This document shows positions 4,729 through 47,301 of a DNA stretch of 64,000 bases, in pieces. Each line of letters opens with the position of its first letter. The stretch's first letter is position 1. The notes under the pieces are model-generated. The model was not told where the DNA came from. It did no database searches and saw nothing but the letters and a program-made list of their open reading frames with translations. The position numbers and the translations under genes were made by a program. Source of the stretch: Candidatus Tenderia sp. (GTDB taxonomy: Bacteria; Pseudomonadota; Gammaproteobacteria; Tenderiales; Tenderiaceae); NCBI GenBank assembly GCA_031416075.1, contig JANOSY010000090.1:1-64000 (forward strand). The letters are read 5' to 3'.

Positions 4729-5106
4729 ATGGAATTAGTTGATCTTTTTTTGGCTCCTGAGGACCTGTTTCGTTTAGGTAATGCCACAAGTCCAAGGCTT
4801 ACCCATATTAGAACACCAAAAGATATAAATACAATTAATATGAATGGAATCACAGTTGTTGTGGCAAATGGAAAAGGGATCTCCTTGGCAACAAAGGATA
4901 GATTAAACAAGAGTCCTGTTGATGGCTGGGTCTGGAAGATTGCCAAGGGAACGCAAATACCCCGTGGATTGAAGTTACTAAATGACAGGCCGGGGCATTA
5001 CAGTATTTGCCCTCAATCAAACATGCCGCTGGATGAGTTTGTTGGTTTGCTATCCAAGTTAGCGATGAAGTGTCAGAAAACATTTAAGAAGCAGATTATA
5101 GGATGA
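4729..5106 (+). CDS. Tse2-like ADP-ribosyltransferase-fold toxin
   Basis: LFR...GISL...IAKGTQIPRGLKLLND...HYSICP..M matches the Tse2 pattern (LYR...GTSV...IPDGTDIPPDLKV..D...HYTIMP..M); strong RBS AGGAGG. Confidence 0.7.
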   Translation: MELVDLFLAPEDLFRLGNATSPRLTHIRTPKDINTINMNGITVVVANGKGISLATKDRLNKSPVDGWVWKIAKGTQIPRGLKLLNDRPGHYSICPQSNMPLDEFVGLLSKLAMKCQKTFKKQIIG

Positions 5107-11500: not shown

Positions 11501-14500
11501 GGTGCCAACGAGACCGCCACCTGGAACATCAGCGGCATGGACAGCGGCACACGCAACACCACCACGACCCTCGCCTTCAGCAGCATTGAAAACATCAGCG
11601 GCGGCAGCGGTGATGACACCTTCACCCTCGGCAACAGCGGCGTAGTCAGCGGCACCCTGGATGGCGGCACTGGCAGCAACCGCCTCAATGGCCGGGCACA
11701 GGGAGACAACGACTGGTTAATCACGGAGACACTGAGCAGCGTCAGCTACGTCTTTGCCTTTCGTAACATGCAGCACCTCTATGGTGGCAATGGTGTAGAT
11801 ACCTTCACCCTCAATGGCACCCTCAACGGCAACATCAGTGGCAGCGTCAACGGTATGGCCGGTGATGACATTTTTAACATCAGCATCGCCATCACCGAGC
11901 AGCTGCTCGGCGGTGAGGGCAACGACACCTTCAACATCAACAGCAATGATCTGAACATCGCCAGCATCGACGGCGGCACGGGCAGCAACACCCTGCGTGG
12001 GGCCAATGAGAGCAGCCGCTGGCAACTGACCGGCAGCAATAACGGCACCCTGATCACCGCGTTCGATGTCAGCGGTCTGGCCCTGAAAGAGATCACCTTT
12101 GCCAACATCAACCGCCTGCAGGGCGGCACGGCGGATGATTGGTTTACGTTGAATAATGTTGCAAGTCTGGAAACACTCACCATCGATGGTGGTGATAACG
12201 GCTTGTTGGGCGATACGGTGGATCTATCAACATTGACGGGCGCACTGCGGATAGTGCTGGGTGGCAGCGGCATCAGCAACATCGAAACGCTGCTGGGCAA
12301 CAGCGATCCCGACACCGTCCTGGTAGGGGAAGAGCGCGACAACAGCTGGCTGATCAACGGCATCAACAGCGGTGCGGTGGGCGGCATGCAGTTCAGCGGC
12401 ATGACCCACCTGCAGGGCGGTGCGGCCAACGACAGCTTCGCCTTTTCAGATACATTGACCGCCCCGTTTGGTGGCAGGATAGACGGCGCTGCCGGTCGTG
12501 ACACCATCAACTACAGCAACCTCAAAGAGGTGGTGGTGACAGTGGGCAACGCCTTTGATACTGGCACCGGCTCCAGGATCAGCAGCATCGAAGGGGTGGT
12601 GGGCGGCCTCGGCAGCACACTCAAGGGCACCGACTATGACTCACTCTGGACTCTGAATAGTGGCGGTGGTAGTGGTGGCACTGTTAAGTACCAGACCATT
12701 GGCAATAACCCGGAGCAGGTGACCCTCTTTTTTGATGGCTTCTCGACACTGCTCGGTGGTGCGGGTAGTGACACCCTTAACTTCAACGTGGCCGGCACCA
12801 TGAATGGCGCACTGCACTTTAATGGTGGTGCGGGCAGCAACAGCGTCCAACTGACCGGCGGTGGCAACGGCTACAGCGAAACTTATCGTGTCAACGATAC
12901 ACAGGGCGAGTTTGCCTTTAGCAGCGGTGATAACCGCTACACCCTGGCCCTGAGCAATGTCACCTCGATCCGTGACGACGTGACCGCCCCCCTGACGGTC
13001 TACGGCACTGCCGCCAACGATACCTTTGTACTCAACAGTGGGACGTTTGCCGTCAATGGCGCACTGCCAGTCCAGTACAGCAATAAAAACAGCATCACCT
13101 TTGATGGGGTGACCGGCGATGCCGATGTGATCACCGTGCAGGTGGACCTGACCCTGCCGGGAACGGTGACCTTCAGCGCCGCCACGGTCACCAGCACGCC
13201 GGGGGCCACCGTCACCGCCGATACCTTGACACTCAACCGGGTGAATGGGGCAGGCACAGCCACCGACCGCCTGCAGAGTGATGTGAAAAATATGCAGCTG
13301 ATCAACAGCGGTGGTCTCTATCTGGAGAACCGGGGCGACCTGAACCTGACACAGCTGAGCACTACAGGCGCGGTGGACCTGCTGGTGAATGGCAATATCA
13401 ACAGCACTGCCCCCCTAGTGGCGGACCATGCACTGACCCTGACCGCCGCAGGCAACATCAGCCTGACTAATGCCACCAATACCCTGCGCGGTCCCCTGGG
13501 ACTGAAAGCAACCACCGGCAAGGTGACCCTGAATAATGGCAGCAATACCACCCTGGCCCGTGTTGACGCCAGGAGCGTGGCACTGGATGTGGCGGGGGAT
13601 CTGGTCAGCAGCGACGGCATCCACGTCACAGGCAATAGCCGCCTCTCAGCCACACAAGCATTGACCATCACCGGCAGCAACGACTTTGCCAGCGTCGAAC
13701 TCACCGCCAACACCATTGAACTGCACGACAGCAACAGCATTGATGTGACCCGCGCACAGGCCAGCCGCAGCATCGCCATCCATGCCGAAGGCACTATTGG
13801 CACCGGCAGCCTGAGCGCACCACAGGTGGCGCTGACCAGCAATGGTGGTCAGATCATCGACACCAACGGCAACGCCGACAACATCATCGCCGACAAAGTG
13901 ATACTGCGCGCCAGCAGCGGCATTGGCCTGACAGATACAGCGGGGCTGATCGATGGACTGGAGACACGGACCGCGATCCTCGACGTCATCAACCAGAACG
14001 GCAATATAGGTATCAACAACCGTGGCAAGGTACAGGTCAACACTCTGGTCACCCAAGGCAACATCGCCTTTAAAAATGAGCAGAGTGTATCGGTAGACAA
14101 AATCGACGCCGGTTATGAGAGCGGCGTTGTGACGATCGATATCAGCAACGGCTCACTGTATGGATATGCTGCCATTCCTACCGAAACCCCCACACAACGC
14201 AGCTACAAAACCACCCCTGACATCATTGCCGACAGGGCAAGCATAAAAGCAACCGGCGACGTAGGTACGCAATATGAACCAGTGAGCGTGAGCATCAACC
14301 GCGAGTTTGCGCTGCTCTCCAACGTCGGCAGTGTTTACTACTACGGTGGCAAGCCTGCCAAGATCATCGATGACTCCAGCATCAAGGTCAGCGTCTTTAA
14401 CGACCTGGTCGGCCTCTCCGGACAGCAACTGATCACGGTAGAGAGCCTGGCAGAGATCGATCCTGCAATTTTTACTAACATTAAAAACTTTAGCTATGGC

Positions 14501-14578
14501 GACATCTCGGTGATGCTGCCCCTTGATCAGCTCTATGATGGAGAGGATGACGAGGAACGTGAAGAGGATGGGGTGTAG
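5549..14578 (+). CDS. Giant filamentous-haemagglutinin-family exoprotein (TPS/haemagglutination-activity N-domain) with RTX-like GGxGxDxF repeats, 3009 aa
   Basis: Signal peptide ending SLYA-GPEGGVV; IDWQGYNV, LVNPNGIFF, GGFAEVSG and LLLDP motifs; many GGxGxDTF repeats; acidic C-terminus. Confidence 0.9.
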   Translation: MSRQKNAMAHTASLGLRVVLVKQVLLLISIFCTSSLYAGPEGGVVTGGAGSISQSGLTTTIQQNSQNMAIDWQGYNVNSNERVQYIQPNSSSLSLNHILSNSASTIRGRIDANGQVILVNPNGIFFTSESVINVGGIIASALDIKTSDFMNRDYLFNEVIGGTGNSDGVVINRGTINAALGGNVALLGKRVENSGLIAANLGSVALAAGKRAVLSFDNAGLLGVSVSEAVLQNELGLDPAVLNSGTIQAQAGQVLLTGSVSQNLFTQAVNSGDIEQARSVVVNSDGSFDLGGGADVVNSGSVDVSNIISTPITDATSAGHIVMLGENITSSGRLNADADRGNGGEIELHSNNTTRLTNNSITTARSSSYGTGGTVTLLGERVGLFDNSQVDASGDTGGGTILVGGDYQGSNPTIKNANYTFVGPDANINADAVTHGDGGKVILWADNSTQFYGDIMARGGSERGNGGFAEVSGKQGLVYQGLANLTAAHGMYGLLLLDPKNITISTDPKIDSFPVPNDYSDFAINRSKTTTLNNKDLSNQLALSSVRLQANNDINITANITKAETTSTTDPLDGGALTLHAGRSITMAAGVAVELDGRDFVAVINHSSADKDHRDTELAHFTMAGGSSIKTNGGNISITTGAKDDIGNFTLQSLNSSGVAGVDNSAGGNAGSITLINNAGSSAGSSSVQGNIIFNAPVTAQGGAGGIGANGGNGGQITITAKNSNNDFGGSNKENITVNADALISANGGNGGTGTANGGGAGAIALTADKTITLNSNIEAQGGGGQGGGVTGNGNAIVLDANTITTEGAREVNATGTTGSTTGNITFARNSTNVNTLNLGGDLTLVAGEGGNVHLRSDINYNGIASGSGTLLLRAGNDINVYGNIGDSNTGSADRLNIILNANSDNSVGGNVTIHKYTNADTTLTTGGGLFNVTGVDYIADSTSSRSVLINTGAGMATLNISGSATLGRMQVAGLSITTAGKDGSNPSIQQGSTNANDTLTVTGAASFTSTASDGKIILSNSNNLQGDINLNSSGGYQGDITLNNSATTTTLNNVSVAGNLTVNANRHLTVKGSVIGKGSDGIDTNPSNPTTTTLALNFGQGGSNSTFTANGAIAAGNINSMGDDIVNITLQGGAGNDTFTLNSSGTLTTLNGGAITLNGASGNDTFNIHTAIAGSVNGGDGDDVFNLNATGLAITSINGNGGDNTLSGAAENTEWLISGSDAGKITTSGNNTVNFSGIKNLTGGSGDDSFTLGSGGSITGTLDGGAGENSLTARDANNVWLVAAVSSISSVDNATRFSNIKTLNGGSGNDAFTLTGAFAGEIHGNGGSNTLQATNSSNSWAIGAVNQLNTTLTFSDIQTVIGGTAVDTFTISDNFGGTLRGGDGNDVFNIAASLTGVLQGEGGDDVFNLNATGLSIASIDGGVGSNTLRGANDLLADWLISGSDAGRLTTTGGGVVNFTNVKHLTGNSAADNFTLGSAGVVTGTLNGGGGANRLSARNSDNVWSVATVGGTSSVNNATSFTNIQTLNGGTGNDTFTLTGAFAGVISGNGGSNTLQATNSTNSWAIGAVNQLNTTLTFSDIQTVIGGTGVDTFTITDNFAGTLNGGDGNDTFNIAASISGQLNGGTGDDSFTLNALGLTIADLIGGGGNDTLRGANEIASWSISGSDAGRLTTTNAGSVNFSGIKNLTGGSAADTFTLGDAGSVTGTVDGGAGSNSLTGRATGNQLWTIITGNSSATYVNRFFNIQTLNSVAGDDTFTLSSDYSGTINGGTGNDTFTLSSLIPSYSGTLNGGAGNDIFNIGTRVTGTLNGGDGNDTFNINAAGLTIATLIGGDGFDILRGNNATATWLISALDSGSITSTLADNITYSGIEHLQGGSGDDTFTLEVAGGVTGSIDGDGGSNTLNGRATGNNLWTIAGNSSAVSNVAEFRNMQRLNGGSGVDTFNISSDFIGTLNGGAGADIFNINATGLNITSLIGGEGLDTLRGANETATWNISGMDSGTRNTTTTLAFSSIENISGGSGDDTFTLGNSGVVSGTLDGGTGSNRLNGRAQGDNDWLITETLSSVSYVFAFRNMQHLYGGNGVDTFTLNGTLNGNISGSVNGMAGDDIFNISIAITEQLLGGEGNDTFNINSNDLNIASIDGGTGSNTLRGANESSRWQLTGSNNGTLITAFDVSGLALKEITFANINRLQGGTADDWFTLNNVASLETLTIDGGDNGLLGDTVDLSTLTGALRIVLGGSGISNIETLLGNSDPDTVLVGEERDNSWLINGINSGAVGGMQFSGMTHLQGGAANDSFAFSDTLTAPFGGRIDGAAGRDTINYSNLKEVVVTVGNAFDTGTGSRISSIEGVVGGLGSTLKGTDYDSLWTLNSGGGSGGTVKYQTIGNNPEQVTLFFDGFSTLLGGAGSDTLNFNVAGTMNGALHFNGGAGSNSVQLTGGGNGYSETYRVNDTQGEFAFSSGDNRYTLALSNVTSIRDDVTAPLTVYGTAANDTFVLNSGTFAVNGALPVQYSNKNSITFDGVTGDADVITVQVDLTLPGTVTFSAATVTSTPGATVTADTLTLNRVNGAGTATDRLQSDVKNMQLINSGGLYLENRGDLNLTQLSTTGAVDLLVNGNINSTAPLVADHALTLTAAGNISLTNATNTLRGPLGLKATTGKVTLNNGSNTTLARVDARSVALDVAGDLVSSDGIHVTGNSRLSATQALTITGSNDFASVELTANTIELHDSNSIDVTRAQASRSIAIHAEGTIGTGSLSAPQVALTSNGGQIIDTNGNADNIIADKVILRASSGIGLTDTAGLIDGLETRTAILDVINQNGNIGINNRGKVQVNTLVTQGNIAFKNEQSVSVDKIDAGYESGVVTIDISNGSLYGYAAIPTETPTQRSYKTTPDIIADRASIKATGDVGTQYEPVSVSINREFALLSNVGSVYYYGGKPAKIIDDSSIKVSVFNDLVGLSGQQLITVESLAEIDPAIFTNIKNFSYGDISVMLPLDQLYDGEDDEEREEDGV
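9485..10305 (+). repeat. Near-identical internal direct repeat (about 150 bp; 9485-9636 and 10154-10305; period 669 bp)
   Basis: TTCACCCTGACCGGTGCGTTTGCCGG...TTCAAACAGTGATCGG occurs twice within the adhesin gene. Confidence 0.85.
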
Positions 14579-14590
14579 GTGATCCGCTGC

Positions 14591-14606
14591 TGGCATAGCA
14601 ATTGCT
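14591..14606 (+). promoter_or_regulatory. Sigma54 (-24/-12) promoter of fliK
   Basis: TGGCATAGCAATTGCT matches TGGCAC-N5-TTGCW, 35 bp before the fliK ATG. Confidence 0.75.
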
Positions 14607-14641: not shown

Positions 14642-15868
14642 ATGTTAACTATGCAGCTGAGCCTACAGGCTATTCCTTTAGTATTGAACGCCTCTCCAGC
14701 GGCTGGGGCTGGATCTTCTCTGAAGACACAACCTGTTGATAATGCTGGTGATGTTGTCGGGGCTGACTTCATTGACTCCTTGAAGGAGTCAATTCAGGAG
14801 TTGGCGCGGGGTGAGATTGCGCCACTGTTGGCACTCGATCAGGCCCAGCTGTTGGCAACGGTTGAGCAATATCTTGCTGGCGAGGCGGGGTTGTCGGGCG
14901 GCAAGGGCATGCCGCTTGAGGGTGTGGTTGCCGCTGATGACAGTGCTGAGTTAACGGCGAATCTGCGTGAGTTGATGGAGCGTTTACGGACGCTGTTGTT
15001 GAATGGCCCGTCCGTGGCCCCATCGGTCGCCGAACTGTCGGGGACGGCAGTGGCGACTGCAGTGGTTGACAGTGTGGCGGCCCAGGCATCCTTTGATCAG
15101 CGCCGACTGCTTGAGCGTTTTCAGTCACTGCCCGAGTTGCGGCGCTCAACAGAGGCTGTTGCTTTTGCCCCAGCGCAGCCGACGATCCTTTTGGATAGTC
15201 CTTTGAATAGCGCCTCCCTTACCCAGGGCGATGAGCTTGTATTGCAGTTGGGAAAGATGGCTGAATTGAGTGCGGTCGCCATGCCACTCAAGGAGGGGGC
15301 GTTGTTAGATGCGAAAGGTGCTGGCATTGATTTGAGTTCGTCATTGACAGCCACCACCACGCGCCAGCCGGGTTTATTGACAGGCAGTGCCGAGGCGCGT
15401 CCGGTTTCACCCACCTATATTCATGTGCCGTTAGGTAACACTCAGTGGCAGAGTGAACTTGGCAATCGTGTCACCTGGCTGGCGCGGGCCGGTGGGAATC
15501 AAAGTGCGGAGATACGTCTGAATCCAGCCAATCTTGGGCCGATTGAGGTCAAGATAATGATGAAAGATGACCAGGCCACTATTACCTTTAATGCACAGCA
15601 TGGTGTTGTACGCGACGCTATTGAGGCGAGCCTGCCACGGTTGCGGGAGATGTTTTTGAATAGTGGCATGCAGTTGGCCCAGGCTAATGTTTCAGACCAG
15701 CCATTTCAGGAGTCTCGCCAGCGCCAACAGTCTGAATCGGGGGAGGGTGATGGTCCTTTTCAAGAGTCGAACAGTCAAGCAGATGAGTCTGGTGAGCAGG
15801 CCTCTTCTGTTGCTTTGTCCCAGAGACGTACTACCGAGCTTGTTGAAAGTGTTGACCTGTATGTGTAG
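14642..15868 (+). CDS. fliK: Flagellar hook-length control protein
   Basis: C-terminal AEIRLNPANLGPIEVKI...VRDAIEASLPRLREM domain, ends VDLYV; upstream of fliL. Confidence 0.9.
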   Translation: MLTMQLSLQAIPLVLNASPAAGAGSSLKTQPVDNAGDVVGADFIDSLKESIQELARGEIAPLLALDQAQLLATVEQYLAGEAGLSGGKGMPLEGVVAADDSAELTANLRELMERLRTLLLNGPSVAPSVAELSGTAVATAVVDSVAAQASFDQRRLLERFQSLPELRRSTEAVAFAPAQPTILLDSPLNSASLTQGDELVLQLGKMAELSAVAMPLKEGALLDAKGAGIDLSSSLTATTTRQPGLLTGSAEARPVSPTYIHVPLGNTQWQSELGNRVTWLARAGGNQSAEIRLNPANLGPIEVKIMMKDDQATITFNAQHGVVRDAIEASLPRLREMFLNSGMQLAQANVSDQPFQESRQRQQSESGEGDGPFQESNSQADESGEQASSVALSQRRTTELVESVDLYV

Positions 15869-16188: not shown

Positions 16189-16204
16189 TGGCACCCTTAT
16201 TGCT
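16189..16204 (+). promoter_or_regulatory. Sigma54 promoter of the fliLMNOPQR-flhB operon
   Basis: TGGCACCCTTATTGCT, consensus match, preceded by an AT-rich tract. Confidence 0.8.
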
Positions 16205-16247: not shown

Positions 16248-16766
16248 ATGGCCGCGAAGGGAAAACCGAAAGAAGAAGCCGCTGAGAAACCAGCCGGTGG
16301 TGGAAAGAAAAAGATGATCATCATGATTGCGGTGATTGTACTGGTTCTTGGTGGAGGCACAGTGGGTACGCTTTTTTTTACCGGGATGTTGGGCGGTGGT
16401 GCAGATAAAAAAGAGGACGCTGCAAAACATGAGGCACCGGCTGCTCATGATCCTATCTATTTTGCTTTCGAAAAACCGATTGTTGTCAATTTTGAGACGG
16501 AATCAGGGTTACGTTTTTTACAGGTTGGGGTAGAGCTGATGTCTTATGATCCGCTGGCTATTGAAGCGGTGAAGACACATATGCCTGTGATAAAAAACAA
16601 CGTAATTTTAATGTTTAGCAATCAGAGTTTTGAAGGATTGGCTGGCCGTGATGGCAAAGACAAACTACGTGAGCAGACGCTTAAAGAGATACAGGCAGTG
16701 ATGGAAAAATACTTTGGTAAGCCTGGTGTTGAAGAGGTTTATTTCACCAGCTTTGTTATGCAATAG
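16248..16766 (+). CDS. fliL: Flagellar basal body protein FliL
   Basis: N-terminal TM helix, VVNF...RFLQV, VEEVYFTSFVMQ. Confidence 0.95.
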   Translation: MAAKGKPKEEAAEKPAGGGKKKMIIMIAVIVLVLGGGTVGTLFFTGMLGGGADKKEDAAKHEAPAAHDPIYFAFEKPIVVNFETESGLRFLQVGVELMSYDPLAIEAVKTHMPVIKNNVILMFSNQSFEGLAGRDGKDKLREQTLKEIQAVMEKYFGKPGVEEVYFTSFVMQ

Positions 16767-38005: not shown

Positions 38006-38416
38006 CTACTCTGGCCGTTGCAGTGATGCAATTAGCGGGCAGTTAACCTCACCATGGGTGGCACAGCACTGTGCCACCAGCCGGGCGAGTACTGCTTCGA
38101 TACGTTGCAGATTGGCCAGCTTGTTGCGTACATCTTCGAGTTTGCGCTCTGCCAGCTCGCGCGCCTCACCGCAGTGGGCGCCATCCTCCAGTCTTAGTAA
38201 TTCAGCTATCTCGTCCAGGCTAAACCCAAGCTGTTGGGCTGATTTAATAAATCTCAGCCGTGCGATATCGGCATGACTATAACGACGGATGCCGCCGTAG
38301 GGTTTCTTTGGCTCCAGTAACAGCCCCTTGCGTTGATAAAAACGGATCGTCTCGACGTTGACCCCGGCCCGTTTGGCAAAGATGCCGATGGTTAACTGCT
38401 CTGAAGGGTTGCTCAT
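38006..38416 (-). CDS. merR: Hg(II)-responsive regulator MerR
   Basis: [28 protein letters not shown] and CC...CPLIASL cysteines. Confidence 0.95.
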
Positions 38417-38421
38417 CTTGC

Positions 38422-38452
38422 TTGACTCCGTACTTGACTACAGAGGTAACGT
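38422..38452 (+). promoter_or_regulatory. MerR operator / merT promoter
   Basis: -35 TTGACT, 19-bp spacer with dyad TCCGTAC-TTGA-CTACAGA, -10 TAACGT; closely resembles the Tn21/Tn501 merOP. Confidence 0.9.
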
Positions 38453-38487
38453 TATACCATCACACAGCGATGTAAACGGGGTTAGAT

Positions 38488-38838
38488 ATGGCGGAATCGG
38501 GCAAAGGTCGTGGTGCATTGGCAATGGAGGGCATGGCGGCGATACTCGCCTCCACCTGCTGCCTTGGCCCGTTGATACTGGTGACACTGGGCATCAGTGG
38601 CGCGTGGATCGCTAACTTGCGGGTATTGGAGCCGTATCGGCCGCTCTTTATCGCTGTGGCCCTGGTGGCTATGTTTTTGGCGTGGTGTCGTATCTTCCGG
38701 CCGGTGGTGGTGTGTAAGCCCGATGATCTCTGTGCGGTTCTGCAGGTACGACGCAGTTATAAAACTATCTTTTGGGGTGTGGCCGGACTGGTGCTGATGG
38801 CCATCGGCTTCCCTTATCTATTACCGCTGTTCTACTAA
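38488..38838 (+). CDS. merT: Mercuric ion transport protein MerT
   Basis: AAILASTCCLGPL, LEPYRPLFI, CKPDDLC, PYLLPLFY. Confidence 0.93.
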   Translation: MAESGKGRGALAMEGMAAILASTCCLGPLILVTLGISGAWIANLRVLEPYRPLFIAVALVAMFLAWCRIFRPVVVCKPDDLCAVLQVRRSYKTIFWGVAGLVLMAIGFPYLLPLFY

Positions 38839-38851
38839 CCGAGAGTTCGTT

Positions 38852-39136
38852 ATGAAAAAACTGTTTGTCATGATTGCGCTTGTTACAATGATCTCTCCTG
38901 TCTGGGCTGCTACTCAGACCGCCACACTGGCGGTGGAGGGCATGACCTGTGGAGCCTGTCCGTTAACGGTCAAGAGTGCACTCTCCAATGTGCCGGGTGT
39001 TACCCATGTGGAGGTGAGTCTGGATAGACGTGAGGCGCAGGTCAGTTATGACGACAATCGAGTCGATGTGAAGAGGCTGACGCAGGTGACGGAGGGGGCC
39101 GGTTACCCCTCTAAGGTAAAGGGGGGCAGTCGATGA
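38852..39136 (+). CDS. merP: Periplasmic mercuric ion-binding protein MerP
   Basis: Signal peptide PVWAATQT, GMTCGACPLTVK, AGYPS. Confidence 0.93.
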   Translation: MKKLFVMIALVTMISPVWAATQTATLAVEGMTCGACPLTVKSALSNVPGVTHVEVSLDRREAQVSYDDNRVDVKRLTQVTEGAGYPSKVKGGSR

Positions 39137-39373: not shown

Positions 39374-39661
39374 TTATAACGCTTCCGTTGGTGGCCGTTT
39401 ACCTGATAACGAGTAAGCAAAAGAGATGACCAGGGCAACGGATAGATAAAGCTCGCGGGGTATCTCGTCACCTTGCTCAATTTCTGACAGTGCCAGCACC
39501 AGTGGCAGATTCTCCTGGATGGGGATGTTGTGCTCTTTGGCAAGGGCGATGATCTCTTCGGCCAGACTGCCTTCACCCTTTGCCATCACCTTGGGGGCCT
39601 GTTTGCCACTTTCCCACTGGAGCGCTACGGCCTTGGCGGGCGGGGAGTTGTGTTGGCTCAT
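39374..39661 (-). CDS. Stand-alone FlhB C-terminal-like protein (EscU/YscU family)
   Basis: KAVAL...APKVMAKGEG.LAEEII.LAKEH.IP...EIPRELY..VA; no NPTH motif or TM domain. Confidence 0.9.
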   Translation of the reverse strand: MSQHNSPPAKAVALQWESGKQAPKVMAKGEGSLAEEIIALAKEHNIPIQENLPLVLALSEIEQGDEIPRELYLSVALVISFAYSLSGKRPPTEAL

Positions 39662-40896
39662 GCGTTTACATCCAGTACGATGGTGGGCAGTGGTTGGCGG
39701 TGGGGTTCGGGCGGCTGCCCCTGAAAACAGCGCAGCTCCCGGCTCTCAATGCCCGCCTCATGATAACGTTGGGCTAACTCTGTTAAATGTTGGCTGATAA
39801 GCGTCGTTGTCTCCATGCGCTCCGCCCAGAAGGTAGTGCTGATCTTTCCACCCTCCAGCTGTAACCGCACATGCATTGGGCCGAGTGACTCCAGTTCCAG
39901 CGCGATAGTGATGTTCCAGCGGAGTTGTTGCTCATCGTTGTTATTTTCACTTCGCTCCTCGTTGATCACACATTGAAACAGATCAACCCTCTCCTGATGA
40001 CGAATCGGTAACTCAAAGCTCCATGTGAGTGGGTTCTGGTCCGACGTAGAGAGTGACGCCAGCTGGTGCAGTTGAGTTCTGGCCAGCCCCCCCTCCACCT
40101 GTTTGCCTAGCTCCTGCAGGAGCGCGAGGGTATTATTGAGTGTGGCCAATGTCGCCTCTGCCTGCCCTTGGGGTTGTGGACGCCCCCCCGGTATGGCGGG
40201 TACTGGGATGGATATTGAAGGCAATATTGGGCGTGTGAGTGATGGCGAGGCCGCTGTCTGTGCAGACTCTTTCTGTATGCTGCTGAGCAGTTGTAACAAC
40301 AGGCTTTTAAGATCGTTACCCGGCGCGGGTGTGGTTTTGCTCTGGACCGTCTGTCGAAGTGCACTCTCCATAAACAGCCCCGACTCCTTAAAGGCCTGTT
40401 TAACGCCCTCAGCAGAGGCTATTTTTCCGCGATTGGGAAGTTGATCGAGGAACGCCTTTGCCAAAACCTGAATGGCCTGTGGCAATGGGACGGTACTGTT
40501 TTGTGGCTGGGCGATCCAGCTGATATTCGCCAGCAGTGGTGTTAGGCCCATTTGACGCGGCAGACTCTGCATCAGCGCCTGTTTAAGCACGGCGTCGGGC
40601 GAAGTGGTTTGACTGAGCACTTTTAAGAGTGGTGTATCACCAAGTTTGCTCACCTCCAGCTGAAGCTGTTGCCCAACAATGAGTGGTTGTGCGGTGTTGG
40701 CCTGAAGCTGGTGCGGTGCTGCCGGTTGGCTGGAAGATGAACGGTTGAGTGAGGGGAGTAGCTGTAGTAATACGTGGTTGCTGGCGAGCTGCTTAATTAC
40801 CACCGCCTGTAACAGCTGCCCAACACGCAGTGGTTGCGGTTGTGCCGTGGCAGCGGCTAGATTGGGCAAGGTTGAAGGGGGTCCATTAATTTTCAT
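39658..40896 (-). CDS. FliK-like (hook-length control C-terminal domain) protein
   Basis: ESGLFMES, WSFELP, LELESLGPMHVRLQL, ends VLDVNA; overlaps FlhB-like gene start. Start codon uncertain. Confidence 0.8.
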   Translation of the reverse strand: MKINGPPSTLPNLAAATAQPQPLRVGQLLQAVVIKQLASNHVLLQLLPSLNRSSSSQPAAPHQLQANTAQPLIVGQQLQLEVSKLGDTPLLKVLSQTTSPDAVLKQALMQSLPRQMGLTPLLANISWIAQPQNSTVPLPQAIQVLAKAFLDQLPNRGKIASAEGVKQAFKESGLFMESALRQTVQSKTTPAPGNDLKSLLLQLLSSIQKESAQTAASPSLTRPILPSISIPVPAIPGGRPQPQGQAEATLATLNNTLALLQELGKQVEGGLARTQLHQLASLSTSDQNPLTWSFELPIRHQERVDLFQCVINEERSENNNDEQQLRWNITIALELESLGPMHVRLQLEGGKISTTFWAERMETTTLISQHLTELAQRYHEAGIESRELRCFQGQPPEPHRQPLPTIVLDVNA

Positions 40897-41028
40897 GGGA
40901 TAAAGCGGGTCCGGATTTGGCCGATGAATCTGTATATTGCCAAGCTGGGCCAATATTGTATATGAGATTGTGCATAAAGCGATGGTGAGTGATTTTCAGT
41001 AATCTGTTTTCTTGTGGAAGTGATTGAA

Positions 41029-41957: not shown

Positions 41958-42007
41958 TGCACAGATCTGGCGCATTGGGTCGTGGTGTGATGCACAGTTT
42001 TTAGGCA
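41958..42007 (+). promoter_or_regulatory. Tandem NtrC-like enhancer sites
   Basis: TGCAC-N7-GCGCA (41958-41974) and TGCAC-N7-AGGCA (41991-42007), 33 bp apart, upstream of a sigma54 promoter; consensus TGCAC-N7-GTGCA. Confidence 0.65.
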
Positions 42008-42080
42008 TAGATGGATACTGTTCTGCTTTTCACCTTACCGTCTCCCCTGTTAGATCATGACGTTACTATTAATTTTAATG

Positions 42081-42096
42081 TGGCATGTGAATTGCT
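42081..42096 (+). promoter_or_regulatory. Sigma54 promoter of the redox operon
   Basis: TGGCATGTGAATTGCT. Confidence 0.8.
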
Positions 42097-42197
42097 GAGC
42101 CACTTTGGAGATACTGTTTTTATTAAATATGTGCGAGGTTGTGCGGTAGGTAAGTGATGACTGCAATGGGCTGTATGTAGTACAGCAAGTTTATGCA

Positions 42198-42231
42198 GGG
42201 CCAACGGTGGCCCATCTATGACAAAGGCGTC
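42198..42231 (+). promoter_or_regulatory. ANTAR (NasT/NasR-type) dual-hexaloop antiterminator RNA
   Basis: GGGCC-AACGGT-GGCCC and GAC-AAAGGC-GTC; both loops have A1/G4 and a C-G closing pair; the second hairpin overlaps the terminator 5' arm. Confidence 0.85.
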
Positions 42232-42271
42232 CACAGCATGGGGAGTTTTCCATGTGCTGGACGCCTTTTTT
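42223..42271 (+). terminator. Leader intrinsic terminator (attenuator)
   Basis: AAAGGCGTCCA...CATGG...CCATG...TGGACGCCTTT followed by T-run, about 46 nt before ATG 42318. Confidence 0.85.
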
Positions 42272-42317
42272 ATTGGTTTTTATAGCAGTTTTTAGTGATG
42301 AGGTGATTGTGGGGAAT

Positions 42318-43913
42318 ATGGCGGCGGCAGTAGATCAAGCAGCGTTAGCATTGCCCCCTGTTGTGATTGTAGGCAGCGGGCCAGTGGGGGTTCGTGTCGC
42401 ACAGGAGTTGTTGCGTCTGGACCCGCTGTTGCATTTGGTGATCTATGGCGACGAACCGTGGGAGCCCTATAACCGTGTGCGATTGACCCAGATGTTGGCA
42501 GGGCACTCCAGTTGGGCGGATATATTTCAATCGTTGCAGCTGCCCACAACCGGGAATATTGAGTGTCGTTACAACTGCGCGGTGGTTGCTATTGATCGCC
42601 ATGAGAAAACAGTGACGGATCTGTTAGGACGGCAGCAGCCATATTCGCGGTTGGTATTGGCAGTGGGATCACGCCCTCATGTGCCAACCATTCCTGGCAA
42701 GGCGCTGCACAATGTATTTACCTTCCGCAATATGTCGGACCTGAATGGCCTGCTGGCCCGCCGTATTGGTAGCCGTCGAATGGTGGTGGTAGGTGGGGGG
42801 CTGTTAGGGATTGAGGCCGCCCATGCACTACAGCGCAGCCATACGGATGTTTCGATTATTCAACATAGTGATCGTTTGATGGGGCGTCAGCTGGATGAGC
42901 ATGCTGCTGCCATGATGTGTGCTGAGGTTGAGTCTCTGGGAATCAATGTCTATCTCAACAGTGGTGTTCAGGCGATATTGGGTGAGCGTTTGGTCGAAGG
43001 GGTACGTCTGCGTGATGGCAGCGTACTCGATTGCGATACCGTAGTTTTTTGTACCGGCATAAAACCCAATGTGGAACTGGCGCGTGGTGCAGGGTTGCGA
43101 GTGGGGCGTGGTATTCGGGTAGATGATCTGTTGCAAACATCCAACCCGGCGATCTATGCAGTGGGTGAGTGTACTGAACATAATAATCAGATTTATGGTT
43201 TGGTTGCGCCGGGGCTGGAGCAGGCCTCGGTGGCGGCCCATAACATTGTTGGCCAGCACGCATTTTATCGTGGCAGTACGGCAGTGGCGCGACTCAAAGT
43301 AGTGGGCACAGCGCTGTTGAGCATTGGCGCAGTGGTAGAGGAGGAGATCCCTAGCCACTACCGCACAGCGGTTTATCAGAATGATGAAAAGGGTTACTAC
43401 CGTAAGTTGGTGATGGTGGGTGGTAGACTTCAAGGGGCGATTGCCATAGGTGAGTGGCCCCAGCATCAACGGGTACAAGAGGGTGTGGTGCACCATCGCC
43501 GTCTCTGGCCATGGCAGCTGATGCGTTTTAAACGGAGCGGTGAGTTGTGGACAGAGCAGCAGTCGCAGGATGTGCGTCAGTGGCCTGCCAATGCAATTGT
43601 CTGTAACTGCACCGGTGTCAGTCGTGGTGTATTAAGCGCAGCGGTCACCGGTGGCTGCACAACGGTTGAGATGTTAGTGCAGTGTACGGGGGCCTCTACG
43701 GTGTGTGGTGGTTGCAAGCCACGTTTGGCTGAGATGTTGGGCGAGTCTGCTGTGCCCATAAAAAACAGAGCAGGCAATCTGCTCATGGGGGCGTCGTTGC
43801 TGGCGATGTTGCTGGCCTTAATAACACTCTTGGTTAAACCCATTCCGTTTGTGACCACCGTGCAACAGGGGTGGCATATCAGTGATCTATGGAGTGCAAC
43901 GTTTTCAAAATAG
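42318..43913 (+). CDS. NirB-like FAD/NAD(P)H oxidoreductase + BFD-like [2Fe-2S] domain + TM helix; ends at an in-frame TAG
   Basis: IVGSGPVG, PYNRV.L, LVLAVGS, VVGGGLLGIEAA, IYAVGEC.EH, VCNC...CGGC; no siroheme/[4Fe-4S] domain. Confidence 0.85.
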   Translation: MAAAVDQAALALPPVVIVGSGPVGVRVAQELLRLDPLLHLVIYGDEPWEPYNRVRLTQMLAGHSSWADIFQSLQLPTTGNIECRYNCAVVAIDRHEKTVTDLLGRQQPYSRLVLAVGSRPHVPTIPGKALHNVFTFRNMSDLNGLLARRIGSRRMVVVGGGLLGIEAAHALQRSHTDVSIIQHSDRLMGRQLDEHAAAMMCAEVESLGINVYLNSGVQAILGERLVEGVRLRDGSVLDCDTVVFCTGIKPNVELARGAGLRVGRGIRVDDLLQTSNPAIYAVGECTEHNNQIYGLVAPGLEQASVAAHNIVGQHAFYRGSTAVARLKVVGTALLSIGAVVEEEIPSHYRTAVYQNDEKGYYRKLVMVGGRLQGAIAIGEWPQHQRVQEGVVHHRRLWPWQLMRFKRSGELWTEQQSQDVRQWPANAIVCNCTGVSRGVLSAAVTGGCTTVEMLVQCTGASTVCGGCKPRLAEMLGESAVPIKNRAGNLLMGASLLAMLLALITLLVKPIPFVTTVQQGWHISDLWSATFSK

Positions 43914-44291
43914 GTGACTGGGTTTACGTTGCTGGGTATGACCGTTTTGGCACTGCTGCTCTCGTTGCGGAAGCGGATTAAAAAATTTTCGTTTATCGAT
44001 TTTGGTTATTGGCGTGTACTACACTCTGTATTAGGAGCGTTATTGTTGATGTTGTTAATCCTGCATACCGGGTTACGTATGGGGGACAACTTTAATTTTC
44101 TATTGATGTTCTGTTTTGTTGCCATTGCACTGATCGGCGCGGTGGTGGGTATGGTGTCGGCGCTTGAGAGTGGTGGTGCCAGTATTGCATTGGGGCGTTG
44201 GCGTCGTTACTCGGGCTGGATCCATCTTGGTCTCTTCTGGCCGCTGCCGGTGCTGCTCGGTTTTCACATCCTCAGTAGTTACTATTTTTAG
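43914..44291 (+). CDS. Di-heme cytochrome b-like membrane domain, in-frame continuation of the previous ORF
   Basis: Same frame directly after TAG; hydrophobic helices with two His pairs 14 residues apart (HSVLGALLLMLLILH, HLGLFWPLPVLLGFH). Confidence 0.7.
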   Translation: MTGFTLLGMTVLALLLSLRKRIKKFSFIDFGYWRVLHSVLGALLLMLLILHTGLRMGDNFNFLLMFCFVAIALIGAVVGMVSALESGGASIALGRWRRYSGWIHLGLFWPLPVLLGFHILSSYYF

Positions 44292-44299
44292 GGGCGACG

Positions 44300-45652
44300 A
44301 TGAGATCGAGCAATATTAAATGGTGGATTGCTTGGTTGTTGCTGAGTTTAGGGGTGGCTGCTTACTACGGATATGCACTGATAAGTGAAGACAAGACTGC
44401 ACTGTTGCCAGGAACGACCAGCCACGGTCATTATCAGATAGAGTTGGCGTGTGGCAGTTGTCACGGGGAGGCATTTGCAGGTGGTGAGGCGTTACAGACA
44501 GCCTGTATCAACTGCCACGGCGATCAGATGAAGGCAGCGCGCGACTCACATCCACGGAGTAAATTTACCGATCCACGTAATGCCGACAGGGTTGCACTGC
44601 TGGACGCTCGTTACTGCATCACCTGTCATCGTGAGCATAAACCAGAGGTGACGGATGCGATGGGCGTGACGTTGCCAAATGACCTCTGTTTTATCTGCCA
44701 CAAAGATATAGCGCAAGAGCGCGCTAGCCATAACGATATCTCTTTTGACAGCTGTGCCAGTGCCGGTTGCCATAACTATCACGACAATCAGGCGCTGTAT
44801 GAAGCGTTCTTGGTTAAACATGGCAATGAGCCAGCCCATCTGACTCCTCAACGTGTTCCTGAACGTAATCTGCATCAATGGAATCTGGCGGTTGCATCTT
44901 CACCGGTAACAGCACTTGCAGCGGGAGATGCCGATGCCCCGGTCAACAGACAGCTAGCGGCGGATGAATTTCAACACTGGGTTGATTCCGGACACGCCAC
45001 GGCTGGTGTTAACTGTTCTGCCTGCCATCAGCAAGAGAATAAAAATTGGATCGACAAGCCAGGCGTAAAAATATGTGAGAGCTGCCACAAACAGGAGGTA
45101 TCGGGGTTTACGGCGGGTAAACACGGTATGCGCCTGGCACAGGGAATGTCACCCATGGTACCGGCCATGGCCCGGTTACCCATGAAGGCAAAAATTGCCA
45201 AGCAGCCACTCGATTGCAACAGCTGTCATGGCGCGCACCAAGGCGGGGTGAAAGAGGCGGTGGTTGATGCCTGCATGGGGTGTCATGACGATGAACATAG
45301 CAGACACTATCCAGACTCACCTCATGCGCAGCTGTGGCAGCAGGAGCAGGCAGGGTTGATAGCTGTGGGTAGCGGTGTCTCCTGTGCGACCTGTCACATG
45401 CCACGGGAGGAGGTGCGCCAACTCGGGGAGAGACATGTTGCCATTCAACACAATCAGAGCCTCAATCTTCGGCCCAACGAAAAAATGGTACGTAGTGTCT
45501 GTATGCATTGCCACGGCTATCAGTTTGCTATCAACGCACTGGCTGATGGCGCGTTAATAAAAAACAACTTCTCATCATCACCCACTGTAGAGGTGAAGAG
45601 TGCACAAATGGCGTTGGCACGTGATGAGAAGCGGGGGACAAGATCAAAATAG
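44300..45652 (+). CDS. Membrane-anchored multiheme cytochrome c (10 CXXCH + 1 CX4CH)
   Basis: CGSCH, CINCH, CITCH, CFICH, CASAGCH, CSACH, CESCH, CNSCH, CMGCH, CATCH, CMHCH; N-terminal hydrophobic anchor. Confidence 0.92.
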   Translation: MRSSNIKWWIAWLLLSLGVAAYYGYALISEDKTALLPGTTSHGHYQIELACGSCHGEAFAGGEALQTACINCHGDQMKAARDSHPRSKFTDPRNADRVALLDARYCITCHREHKPEVTDAMGVTLPNDLCFICHKDIAQERASHNDISFDSCASAGCHNYHDNQALYEAFLVKHGNEPAHLTPQRVPERNLHQWNLAVASSPVTALAAGDADAPVNRQLAADEFQHWVDSGHATAGVNCSACHQQENKNWIDKPGVKICESCHKQEVSGFTAGKHGMRLAQGMSPMVPAMARLPMKAKIAKQPLDCNSCHGAHQGGVKEAVVDACMGCHDDEHSRHYPDSPHAQLWQQEQAGLIAVGSGVSCATCHMPREEVRQLGERHVAIQHNQSLNLRPNEKMVRSVCMHCHGYQFAINALADGALIKNNFSSSPTVEVKSAQMALARDEKRGTRSK

Positions 45653-45698
45653 TGCTTTTGAGTGAGTCTGTTCATTCAACGTGTAGAAGGAGATAGCA

Positions 45699-46286
45699 AT
45701 GAACCATATGCGAAAAAAAGCGCTGGTCATGGGTGTCGTTAGCACAGTGCTGTTATCAGGGTGTGGTCAGCAAGCTGAAACCCCGGCAGCTGTTAATACA
45801 GCCATTACACCACAAAAAATGGCGGACGCCCTGCATGCAGTGATGGAGGCAGATCGAGCCGTCTATACCAAACTGGTGATCAACCGCTTGGTTAAAGAGG
45901 AGAAGGTGATTAAAGCCAGTGAGCACTGGCAGGATGATAAGGCGCTACCCCTGCCAGCACAGATGTTTCGTTTTGGTGCGGAGCGGGTTGCGGAAAGCAA
46001 CAGTGATTTCAGTTATTCGCTAATCTCATCCTGGCCGATCAATAAACAGAATGAGCCAAAAACAGAGTCAGAGGCGAGTGGGTTGAAGTTTATTGAAGAG
46101 AACCCCGGAAAAAATTTCTATAAAGAGGAATCTCTGGGCGGAAAAAATTATTACACCGCCATATATCCCGATGTTGCTGTTGCCCCGGCCTGTGTTGAGT
46201 GCCATAACGACCATAAAGATACACCTAAGAGTGATTTTAAAATTGGCGATACCATGGGTGGTGTGGTGATTCGTATACCACTATAA
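45699..46286 (+). CDS. DUF3365/Tll0287-like mono-heme c lipoprotein
   Basis: Lipobox LLSGC, PINKQNEP, CVECH, FKIGDTMGGVVIRIP. Confidence 0.8.
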   Translation: MNHMRKKALVMGVVSTVLLSGCGQQAETPAAVNTAITPQKMADALHAVMEADRAVYTKLVINRLVKEEKVIKASEHWQDDKALPLPAQMFRFGAERVAESNSDFSYSLISSWPINKQNEPKTESEASGLKFIEENPGKNFYKEESLGGKNYYTAIYPDVAVAPACVECHNDHKDTPKSDFKIGDTMGGVVIRIPL

Positions 46287-46314: not shown

Positions 46315-47168
46315 TCACGGGATTTTTGTAACGTTAAAATGGAGCAAAGCCATTCGATGATGTGCACCGCTTAAGCTTTCCATCCCAAGCGTTATCTTGA
46401 TATTGCGTAAATCCAGTTCAACATGCCAGCGCTGTTTATATAACTCAGCCAGGGATTTTCTCGGTATCTCTTTGTCAGGCAATAATATTGTTACCAATAC
46501 TTTTTTATCCGTTTTAAGTTCACGGATAGTTAGTTCACCAGGAAACTCTTCATATTGTGCCTTGTTCATCCAGTCCGGCATGATCTTGGGTTTTTTCCAG
46601 GCCACAACATGATCGCGTACACCTAGCTTCTGACCTCTTCTGAAATCAGTTTTACGCACAGCATGTTGTTGGAATACAACATCAACTCCGTTTGCTATCA
46701 GCATGGCAATCAGAAAATAGCTACAATAATAACGGTCGCTCAACACCACATCGCCAGGCTCAAAGCTCTCTAATAACTGCCGTAACAGAGCGTGTTCACT
46801 CGCCCCTTTGCCTTTAAATGCTTCCATGGCTGCATCGAGCATCACGCCACTGGACAAACAAATGACACCAACAATTCTGGCGATGGGAAAGCCTAATCCA
46901 GGCGCTTGACCGCGTTGCTGGGGATAAACGTCTTGATTGGCCGCGGTGTCTGGCAGGGTGATGGTGGTGCCATCGACCAGCTTTACGCGACGTCCTTGCC
47001 AGCGCCATGCGTTCGGTGTCTGTTCCGCAACCAAACGCCCCAATTGCTTTACCAGTACAGCTGTGGGCTGGTGAGTAGATTGAAAAAACTGTACGAGTCT
47101 GTCTTTTTGGCACAATGGCTAATGCGCTTCTGTTGATGGCCCGGTAATTTATGGTTAGGATGAGGCAT
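46315..47168 (-). pseudogene. IS4-family transposase remnant (internal deletion/frameshift, 3' truncated)
   Basis: ATG 47168 gives MPHPNH...DSYSFFNLLTSPQLYW*; another frame continues with VKLVDGTT, SDRYYCSY, LYKQRWHVELDLRNIK; similarity stops after LGMESLS. Confidence 0.85.
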
Positions 47169-47278
47169 GGCTGGCGACTCCAGATGGTTGCGAATTGTGT
47201 GGTAACAATTAGCTTATCATCTCGCCAGCCTTCTTATTTCTTCAATAGGTTAGTGGCTTTTCATGCGGTGCTATGGCT

Positions 47279-47295
47279 TAAGTAAGTGCCATTCG
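47279..47295 (-). mobile_element. Probable left terminal inverted repeat of the IS4 remnant
   Basis: Minus strand reads CGAATGGCACTTACTTA, resembling IS4-subgroup ends; no matching right IR seen. Confidence 0.6.
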
Positions 47296-47301
47296 GGCCT
47301 G

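Follow-up and report, generated by a model that had tools for sequence, protein, structure and literature searches.

Several described systems share features with the locus analysed here. In Bradyrhizobium, the genes narK-bjgb-flp-nasC are controlled by NasT, and in the accessible part of the report the NAD(P)H flavoprotein encoded there is proposed to feed the single-domain globin in the detoxification of the nitric oxide (NO) that nitrate assimilation gives rise to (PMC4724949). The RNA targets of ANTAR proteins are marked, according to the available portion of another study, by a pair of hairpins, each with a C:G closing pair and a hexaloop that has A in first and G in fourth position, the second hairpin overlapping a terminator (PMC7496416). 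For the DUF4405 family, the accessible text of a preprint reports haem b binding and proposes a role as membrane electron carrier (bioRxiv 10.1101/2024.03.13.584918). In this work we have analysed a stretch of 64,000 nucleotides from Candidatus Tenderia sp. (Gammaproteobacteria; assembly GCA_031416075.1, contig JANOSY010000090.1, positions 1 to 64,000; hereafter the window), in which one leader plus three genes on the + strand (41958-46286) code for a NirB-like flavoprotein with a membrane domain, an undecahaem cytochrome c and a mono-haem lipoprotein. We propose, at what we consider even chances of being right, that these proteins form an electron-export complex fed by NAD(P)H, which belongs to the nitrate regulon and would reduce NO, hydroxylamine (NH2OH) and/or nitrite as an accessory beside NirB. 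The parts all come from known superfamilies; their wiring is the new element.

A preliminary description of this locus had recognised a compact operon coding for a NirB-type FAD/NAD(P)H domain joined to a BFD-like domain and free of a sirohaem domain, a membrane domain with two His pairs, an anchored cytochrome with 11 haem motifs and no CXXCK, and a mono-haem lipoprotein. All three genes are present and each of these parts was found again. Gene 1 (coordinates are collected in Table 1) matches the Pfam families Pyr_redox_2 (190 bits), Pyr_redox, Rubredoxin_C and Fer2_BFD (39 bits, cut-off 26), and the BFD-type CxC...CxxC cysteines are at least 95% conserved in an alignment of 119 of its 120 best homologues, one having been left out for length. 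Against the NirB model TIGR02374 it scores 390 bits (cut-off 578) and covers model positions 1-467 of 794. The NIR_SIR family ([4Fe-4S]/sirohaem) is absent from its Pfam matches, and the membrane domain occupies that place. By these assignments the product of gene 1 is predicted to be NirB-like in its NAD(P)H/FAD/[2Fe-2S] half and to lack the sirohaem half. In their source records the homologues are named only 'NAD(P)/FAD-dependent oxidoreductase' or 'nitrite reductase large subunit'. The gene likely starts at the ATG at 42318, rather than at the ATG at 42252 given in the list of open reading frames (ORFs), because the latter falls within the 3' arm of the leader terminator.

The membrane domain bears four His (motifs WR..H, HTG, H....WP.P and L...H....Y) that are at least 95% conserved in the same 119 homologues. 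They form two pairs, with 13 residues between the members, on the transmembrane (TM) helices TM3 and TM5, which is the pattern expected if the domain binds two stacked b haems, one near each membrane face. We considered filing the domain under DUF4405 and dropped this assignment, the scores being sub-threshold only: the window protein reaches 17.9 bits (gathering cut-off 26.7), and among the membrane domains of 15 relatives there were sub-threshold matches to DUF4405 in six, to DUF6713 in six and to cytochrome b561 in three, none over the DUF4405 cut-off.

The second gene codes for a cytochrome with an N-terminal hydrophobic helix, ten CXXCH motifs and one CX4CH. The same counts were obtained in 22/22 homologues taken from the related loci, and CXXCK, the motif of the catalytic haem of NrfA, occurs neither in the window cytochrome nor in any of these 22. 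In an alignment of 64 sequences all 11 haem motifs are invariant, and so, or nearly so, are 11 further His, of which five lie in the N-terminal part (haems 1-5) and six in the C-terminal part (haems 6-11). A first structural model, based on 23 sequences, was poor (predicted local distance difference test score, pLDDT, of 63) and gave no useful match in Foldseek; it was replaced by a model based on the 64 sequences (pLDDT 92.3, predicted template modelling score 0.89). With the good model Foldseek returned no match at E <= 0.001, its weak matches being led by hydroxylamine oxidoreductase (HAO; E 4.7e-3). A structure search independent of Foldseek had multihaem cytochromes in the first 15 of its 18 rows, and placed residues of about 205-430 on the Kuenenia HAO 4n4j (Z 7.6, root-mean-square deviation 3.7, 190 residues aligned), the Nitrosomonas HAO 6m0p (Z 7.5), 4qo5 (Z 7.0), the reducing HAO-like Kustc0458 6h5l (Z 7.0), the octahaem nitrite reductase (ONR) 8rv0 (Z 5.8) and three NrfA structures (Z 5.4-5.6), with about 140-210 residues aligned in the HAO, ONR and NrfA matches; the Mtr-type wire 6r2q came lower (Z 3.4). 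Z-scores below 8 were taken as middling, and weight was put on the consistency of the list and on the sequence.

At the sequence level, the cytochrome family profile matches 4qo5 (4e-12), NrfA and 6h5l (2e-10), and its alignment with Kustc0458 is collinear over five haem motifs (independent E-value 4e-9). The motif of haem 7 in the window (C259-H263) aligns with the fourth motif of the octahaem protein, which we take to bind the catalytic haem of HAO-type enzymes, and H333 aligns with the His of the 'DH' that follows the sixth motif, a pair to which we also presume a role in these enzymes. The model and the profile together point to an HAO/ONR/NrfA fold in the C-terminal six-haem half, a likeness of which the preliminary description had made no mention. 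The missing CXXCK does not exclude catalysis, since in the HAO and ONR relatives it is a CXXCH motif that holds the catalytic haem. Two further observations may be added. One homologue (P0178, 831 aa) has a transporter-like N-terminal half of 12 helices fused to the undecahaem cytochrome, either a real fusion or a gene-calling artefact; and the 'undecahaem' OccP found in the literature (922 aa; bioRxiv 10.1101/695007) is, from the accessible part of that preprint, a different protein.

Two checks that the preliminary description had suggested, the prediction of the complex and the conservation of the three-gene order, came out in favour of the trans-membrane conduit that it had put forward. 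For the first, the membrane domain of an intact relative (L001, 95% identical to that of the window) was folded together with the window cytochrome. The pair scored 0.72, versus 0.00 for the best of three controls; the runs share at least 98% of contacts, and the pLDDT of the partners is at least 84. The score mark used is reached by 58 of 80 solved complexes versus 2 of 110 mismatched pairs, figures that hold roughly for a run with our own alignments. In the predicted interface, helix 12-27 of the cytochrome, the conserved FLPG segment (33-39) and the haem-1 motif (C51/H55) lie against TM5 and the periplasmic loops near the outer His pair. The model puts haem 1 of the cytochrome on the periplasmic face of the di-haem membrane domain, which supports binding and is no proof of it, and it suggests that the N-terminal helix of the cytochrome would be an anchor rather than a cleaved signal.

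Gene order was examined in 29 loci, obtained by a cytochrome scan of contigs from one genome per species and searched by tblastn with the window proteins. The order flavoprotein, cytochrome, DUF3365 protein on one strand is kept in 21 of them, and the cytochrome is followed by the DUF3365 gene in 26; this adjacency is missing in L017, a Crenothrix contig with a rearrangement, in L024, where the contig ends, and in L029, a weak match. Four loci (L022 and L025-L027) are without the NirB-like part. In two of these (L022 3880-5988 and L025 4791-5981) the NirB-like position is taken by a GPP34 domain (138-142 bits), encoded in the gene that precedes the cytochrome, and in L022 the C-terminus of the product of this gene still matches the di-haem membrane domain, a variant of the module with another cytoplasmic part. 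According to their record titles the loci come from Gammaproteobacteria (among them Marinobacter, Microbulbifer, Crenothrix and metagenome-assembled genomes, MAGs, of Chromatiaceae), from Verrucomicrobiota records, Luteolibacter and Brevifollis, and from MAGs of Planctomycetales, Fibrobacteria and Sulfurovum. In an even sample of the class, the membrane domain was found in 24 of 401 gammaproteobacterial genomes and the cytochrome in the same 24, with no genome carrying only one of the two at the thresholds used. They adjoin in 23 of these carriers; in the other (G371) they lie on separate contigs, each match being cut by a contig end. Among the plasmids of PLSDB, a tblastn search with a Cupriavidus homologue (P0070) gave only true nirB genes; the 109 records contained no match over the full length. 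The conduit architecture is favoured by the conserved di-His pairs, by the complex model, and by the fact that membrane domain and cytochrome co-occur strictly and adjoin each other.

The third gene belongs to the Tll0287-like/DUF3365 family (PF11845, 74.3 bits, cut-off 24.1) and codes for a protein with a lipobox (LLSGC) and one CXXCH. The C..CH motif is present in at least 90% of 25 aligned sequences of the family. Apart from the CXXCH there is no conserved Cys among these 25 (the lipobox Cys is not conserved either), so that the Cys/His axial ligation of Tll0287 would not be expected here. One stand-alone protein of this sCache_haem type, from P. putida, has been studied; the accessible text describes a redox protein of +123 mV which binds NO weakly, and leaves open what the stand-alone members do (bioRxiv 10.64898/2026.02.01.703092, a 2026 preprint).

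The preliminary description had placed NtrC-like sites, a sigma54 promoter and an ANTAR attenuator upstream of gene 1, and had read them as marks of the nitrate regulon. The promoter element and the attenuator-type leader were confirmed, and the NtrC-like sites are not above chance. One 10/12 match to the NtrC palindrome lies at a plausible distance; the window holds four matches of this kind versus 5.2 expected, and sites of such quality occur in only 3 of 16 related upstream regions (background 1.6% per 220-nt segment). By contrast, the strict sigma54 pattern is matched three times in the window versus 0.40 expected, and none of 100 shuffles reached three. In 16 of 23 loci a looser sigma54 motif occurs in the 460 nt that precede gene 1, a count made without shuffle control. 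Both rpoN and ntrC are encoded in this genome.

The leader (191 nt) folds with a minimum free energy of -68 kcal/mol (z = -4.1 versus shuffles); its terminator was missed by a simple terminator scan and revealed by folding. It has the two hairpins, closing pairs and hexaloops of ANTAR targets, including the overlap of the second hairpin, P2, with the terminator, and the P2 motif [AG]CAA-N-G[GA][GC]GT[CT] followed by a terminator is present in the upstream regions of 10 of 15 relatives. In the whole window there were no matches to Rfam at gathering thresholds, it not being established whether this type of leader is curated there. On contig C47 of this genome, the nrtA-like gene of a nitrate ABC transporter is preceded by a leader of the same type, in which GATC-AATGGC-GATC and GGAC-AATGGC-GTCC are combined with a terminator. 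A loose genome-wide scan for two hexaloop hairpins and a T-run gave 49 matches, and the bare motif is therefore unspecific; only the versions with AAxGGC loops, those ahead of nrtA and of this operon, resemble each other. The argument for ANTAR control rests on the likeness of these two leaders and on conservation in relatives. One ANTAR response regulator is encoded in this genome, and among the 24 carriers only G215 is without a member of the family (23 of 24, versus 123 of 400 genomes in the whole class sample). In 11 of the 24 an ANTAR gene precedes the cluster by no more than about 2.5 kb, and in five others it lies beside nirB. From promoter, leader and these neighbours we infer that the operon belongs to the nitrate/nitrite-assimilation regulon, as had been put forward. 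In three loci (L004 56-1375, L006 1993-3261 and L010 1950-3245, all on the - strand) a gene for a protein of about 420-440 aa with no Pfam family at E <= 0.01 lies just upstream of the ANTAR response-regulator gene and divergent from the operon; these proteins are candidate partner sensors.

What could be the role of such a conduit in a nitrate-assimilating cell? The preliminary description had concluded that it provides a siroheme-independent route of assimilation, and this part of its account is not supported by the genomes. The genome under study has a canonical NirB (809 aa, 944 bits) on contig C55, together with a NasA/NasC-like nitrate reductase and NarK, and an nrtABC-like nitrate transporter on C47. 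In 21 of the 24 carriers NirB scores above its cut-off; among the other three, one genome is 72% complete and another has a shortened match. Since canonical NirB is kept both here and in these carriers, the module looks accessory, an addition to sirohaem-based assimilation and not a substitute for it. Upstream of nirB in this genome (L033 7740-7990) there are a sigma54-type element (TGGCGC-N5-TTGCT) and a good NtrC-type palindrome (CGCACC-N5-GGTGCG), and no terminator leader, so nirB and the operon seem to be wired differently.

The neighbours of the module were scanned in 22 loci (115 of 170 listed ORFs, shorter and more distant ones being left out). The operon continues with a single-domain or truncated globin, without signal peptide, in 11 of them, and a class-I cytochrome c with signal peptide follows in eight. 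The last gene of the operon in a Fibrobacteria MAG (L020 8308-9615) codes for three globin domains in tandem (436 aa).

We propose that electrons from cytoplasmic NAD(P)H would pass over FAD and the BFD-type [2Fe-2S] centre to the two b haems predicted at the His pairs of TM3 and TM5, from these to haem 1 of the cytochrome, and on through its HAO/ONR/NrfA-like hexahaem module to the periplasmic sCache_haem lipoprotein; in many relatives an extra class-I cytochrome c and a cytoplasmic single-domain globin would be added. Transcription would start at the sigma54 promoter and pass the leader terminator only once an ANTAR (NasT-type) antiterminator has bound both hexaloop hairpins, presumably when nitrate or nitrite is present. 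The task would be to remove or salvage the reactive nitrogen oxides that arise in nitrate/nitrite assimilation. It would be carried out in the periplasm, and additionally in the cytoplasm of those relatives that have the globin. Electron export of this kind would, by our reasoning, dissipate membrane potential, and would therefore suit a protective or assimilatory task and not respiration. The reverse direction, a periplasmic oxidation that drives NAD(P)+ reduction, was rejected by reasoning on energetic grounds. An accessory reducer of nitrogen oxides fits better than a substitute for NirB because NirB coexists with the module in nearly all carriers and a globin accompanies it in half of the loci scanned.

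A bolder form of this proposal, which we put forward tentatively and think rather more probably wrong than right, is that the module is a previously unrecognised, widespread trans-membrane reductase powered by NAD(P)H and independent of quinones, whose HAO-like subunit would make ammonium from NO, NH2OH or nitrite in the periplasm of nitrate-assimilating heterotrophs. It would then be a third kind of assimilatory or protective nitrogen-oxide reductase, beside sirohaem NirB/NirA and NrfA, and wired to the NasT regulon.

Among the alternatives, the one drawn from the preliminary description is a periplasmic, siroheme-independent assimilatory reductase of nitrite (or of another product of nitrate) which supplies ammonium for uptake as an NAD(P)H-driven alternative to NirBD. 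The leader and promoter of nitrate-regulon type speak for it, as do an HAO/ONR/NrfA-like module with nitrite- or hydroxylamine-reducing relatives, an electron supply that does not draw on the quinone pool, and a distance of only 6-8 kb between cluster and nirB in two genomes (G193 and G282). We nevertheless think it unlikely: the coexistence of NirB, here in a genome that also has a NasA/NasC-like reductase and NarK, gives no genome-level sign of replacement, the open catalytic haem is only a candidate predicted from the sequence, and the frequent cytoplasmic globin would have no part in such a route.

The conserved His of the cytochrome bear on another alternative, which we likewise regard as improbable, namely that the conduit is a non-catalytic wire. 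It could use NAD(P)H to keep periplasmic cytochromes c or the sCache_haem protein reduced for other enzymes (cytochrome c-dependent NO or N2O reductases, or peroxidases), or reduce metals such as Fe(III), by which the additional need for iron during growth on nitrate would be covered. Eleven conserved non-motif His of distal type for 11 haems are what such a wire would have. The six extra His of the C-terminal half fit six bis-His haems, and equally fit five ligands plus one catalytic His as in NrfA. The class-I cytochrome c of eight loci, the redox behaviour of the P. putida sCache_haem protein (bioRxiv 10.64898/2026.02.01.703092, accessible text) and the service of DUF4405-like and PepSY-like di-haem membrane proteins in extracytosolic electron transfer and iron handling, as given in the available part of bioRxiv 10.1101/2024.03.13.584918, would suit it too. 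Yet in the flank scan of 22 loci neither terminal reductases nor metal-uptake genes were regular neighbours of the cluster, control would be by an ANTAR/nitrate-type leader (iron regulators such as Fur boxes were not searched for), and the C-terminal module is closer to the catalytic cores of HAO type than to Mtr-type wires. That the whole is a signalling device, in which the sCache_haem protein acts as a sensor of NO or redox state and the conduit merely poises its haem, is very improbable: fusions to signalling domains make up about half of the sCache_haem family, and one of these fused members binds NO in the manner of a sensor, but the stand-alone members are, in the accessible text of the same preprint, without association to output proteins (bioRxiv 10.64898/2026.02.01.703092), the conserved module has no gene for a signalling output, and thirteen haems plus a flavoprotein would be a heavy investment for poising a sensor.

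Several points weigh against an accessory reductase of nitrogen oxides, the reading we prefer. All 11 haems of the cytochrome could be bis-His coordinated, as judged from the conserved His, which would leave a wire without catalytic site; the structural Z-scores of 5-8 are middling, and the best E-value of Foldseek is only that of the weak HAO match. The weak NO binding of the P. putida sCache_haem protein (bioRxiv 10.64898/2026.02.01.703092, accessible part) is not what the reading would favour. Neither globin nor class-I cytochrome c is found in the window operon or in its nearest relatives (L001 and L003), and tblastn with two globin queries gave no globin match in this genome. Several loci have unrelated neighbours, for instance citrate synthase and tRNA synthetases, and the ANTAR and other enrichment counts are not corrected for relatedness. 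Finally, an amber codon in gene 1 means that nothing here need function in this organism.

This codon concerns a further claim of the preliminary description, which had the flavoprotein continuing in frame into the membrane domain. The common frame and the two His pairs were confirmed; the uninterrupted continuation was not, and the stop had escaped notice. The frame of gene 1 codes for one hydrophobic helix, then meets the TAG, and then codes for four more helices up to 44291. Nearly all of the 120 best homologues are single fused proteins, with lengths of about 640-720 aa. At the site of the TAG, which in the window has the surroundings ...FSK-TAG-VTGF..., the closest homologue, P0001 (679 aa, 96% identical), has ...FSKQVTGF..., and both this K and this Q are at least 95% conserved in the alignment. 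There is no ribosome-binding site ahead of the GTG at 43914, and among the 24 carriers of the class sample only the genome of the window has a stop inside the membrane domain. Contigs of the likely source run (X1) span the site without differences, as does one 173-base contig (depth 2.7) of a second sample of the same study (run X2); those of a third run (X3) also span it, with 35 differences over the piece, and in them the state of 43911 itself is not visible. The TAG is probably real in the sampled population, assembled contigs being unable to reveal a minority allele. In our reading the copy of gene 1 in the window is broken, by a CAG-to-TAG change, or at best split, and the conduit in this genome is probably inactive, or at best works in two pieces.

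Table 1. Features of the operon and of its 3' border (positions in the window)
Feature	Position	Strand	Remarks
NtrC-like palindrome TGCACA-N5-GGCGCA	41958..41974	+	10/12 match, 123 nt upstream of the -24 element; doubtful
Sigma54-type -24/-12 element TGGCAT-N5-TTGCT	42081..42096	+	agrees with GG-N10-GC and with the consensus TGGCAY-N5-TTGCW
Leader hairpin P1 GGGCC-AACGGT-GGCCC	42198..42213	+	C:G closing pair, hexaloop with A1 and G4
Leader hairpin P2 GAC-AAAGGC-GTC	42220..42231	+	3' half (42226-42231) is the start of the terminator 5' arm
Intrinsic terminator	42226..42271	+	stem of 16-bp class (42226-42265), then T6
Gene 1, first part: NirB-like FAD/NAD(P)H oxidoreductase, BFD-type [2Fe-2S] domain and TM1	42318..43913	+	ends at the amber codon
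In-frame TAG	43911..43913	+	homologues have a Gln (KQ) there, at least 95% conserved
Gene 1, second part: four TM helices, two conserved His pairs (predicted di-haem b)	43914..44291	+	
Gene 2: membrane-anchored undecahaem cytochrome c, N-terminal pentahaem part and predicted HAO/ONR/NrfA-like C-terminal hexahaem part	44300..45652	+	
Gene 3: mono-haem Tll0287-like (DUF3365/sCache_haem) lipoprotein	45699..46286	+	
DDE transposase (IS4/IS5-type) ORF	46315..47115	-	at the position of the porin gene and nrtA in L001

Downstream of the operon, the 95% identical relative L001 has a gene for an Alginate_exp-type porin and nrtA, whereas the local REARRANGEMENT of the window has the transposase ORF and a TRAP transporter there. 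The nrtA of this genome lies at the end of contig C47 and adjoins an IS5 fragment (L032 17659-17952), and tblastn gave no match to the L001-type porin gene in this genome. Transposase ORFs of IS4/IS5 type are thus present both at the 3' end of the operon (46315-47300) and at the end of the nrtABC contig, and contigs of four runs in Logan break or branch at 46397-46438. This suggests either a rearrangement mediated by insertion sequences or an assembly join through the repeat. The join from operon to downstream sequence crosses a repeat, and the true neighbourhood may differ from that of the window.

Other features of the window lie apart from the operon. The two remaining strict sigma54 elements (14591-14606 and 16189-16204, + strand) stand just upstream of a FliK-like gene (14642-15868) and of fliL (16248-16766), and head a flagellar/chemotaxis cluster that reaches about 36 kb. 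Between the chemotaxis genes and the operon there is a mercury-resistance fragment (38006-39136) of merR (- strand), merT and a gene with an HMA domain (merP-like); a second FliK-like gene is at 39658-40953 (-). A 3009-aa ORF at 5549-14578 (+) matches no Pfam family at E <= 1e-5, in a region with a G+C of 0.54-0.59 and a strong AT skew. At 4729-5106 (+), a 125-aa ORF has a Tse2-type ADP-ribosyltransferase toxin domain (PF18648, 56 bits), beside lipase-class-3 and DUF6795 genes.

If the accessory role is true, many nitrate-assimilating bacteria spend cytoplasmic NAD(P)H on periplasmic nitrogen-oxide chemistry by means of a dedicated system, a bacterial and non-homologous counterpart of electron export of the NADPH-oxidase type that ends in a multihaem cytochrome. 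This would bear on how heterotrophs handle the NO and hydroxylamine made in assimilation, on where NO, N2O and NH4+ are produced or consumed unnoticed in sediments and waters, and on the role of stand-alone sCache_haem proteins. The proposal can be tested directly, the module being compact and present in records named as the cultivable Microbulbifer yueqingensis and Luteolibacter sp. AS25, and in Marinobacter MAGs. The preliminary description had regarded the architecture as uncharacterised, and so it appears: none of the three proteins reaches the cut-off of an NCBIfam model, and no published description of the cluster was found in the full-text literature, supplements and subscription journals lying outside that scope, so that one may exist.

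How, then, does the operon compare with known systems? Its leader has the two hairpins of the NasR, NasT and EutV targets, with C:G closing pairs, A1/G4 hexaloops and a second hairpin that overlaps the terminator, whereas the genes controlled here are not the classical nas, nir or eut genes. With narK-bjgb-flp-nasC of Bradyrhizobium it shares, as far as the accessible text describes that system, the NasT-type control, the link to nitrate assimilation and a flavoprotein associated with a globin, the latter in the related loci; Flp differs in being soluble and in also serving NasC, while gene 1 is fused to a predicted di-haem membrane domain coupled to periplasmic c haems, and the operon of the window is without the globin of the Flp-Bjgb unit (PMC4724949). 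Among the HAO/ONR/NrfA/OcwA group of multihaem proteins (PMC9250108), the modelled C-terminal six-haem half of the cytochrome superposes on HAO, the IhOCC-like 4qo5, Kustc0458, ONR and NrfA (Z 7.6-5.4). The window cytochrome differs from them in an additional N-terminal pentahaem part and membrane anchor, in its 11 haems and lack of CXXCK, and in its donor, a predicted NAD(P)H flavocytochrome b in place of quinol- or cytochrome-linked partners.

Gene 1 agrees with NirB in its N-terminal FAD/NAD(P)H part, with two dinucleotide-binding domains, in the BFD-type [2Fe-2S] domain and in the context of the same regulon, and departs from it in a five-helix membrane domain with two His pairs that stands instead of the [4Fe-4S]/sirohaem domain. 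The His spacing of this domain is typical of the sites of DUF4405, MsrQ and PepSY-like di-haem membrane cytochromes. Its logic would be that which we take to hold for NADPH oxidase and ferric-reductase-type cytochromes, where a cytoplasmic nicotinamide/flavin donor feeds two stacked b haems on two helices and an acceptor waits outside. Unlike in NADPH oxidase and in the DUF4405, MsrQ and PepSY-like proteins, the flavin domain of gene 1 is NirB-like, carries a [2Fe-2S] domain and lies N-terminal to the membrane part, and the predicted acceptor is a multihaem cytochrome c in place of O2, Fe(III) or a flavinylated protein.

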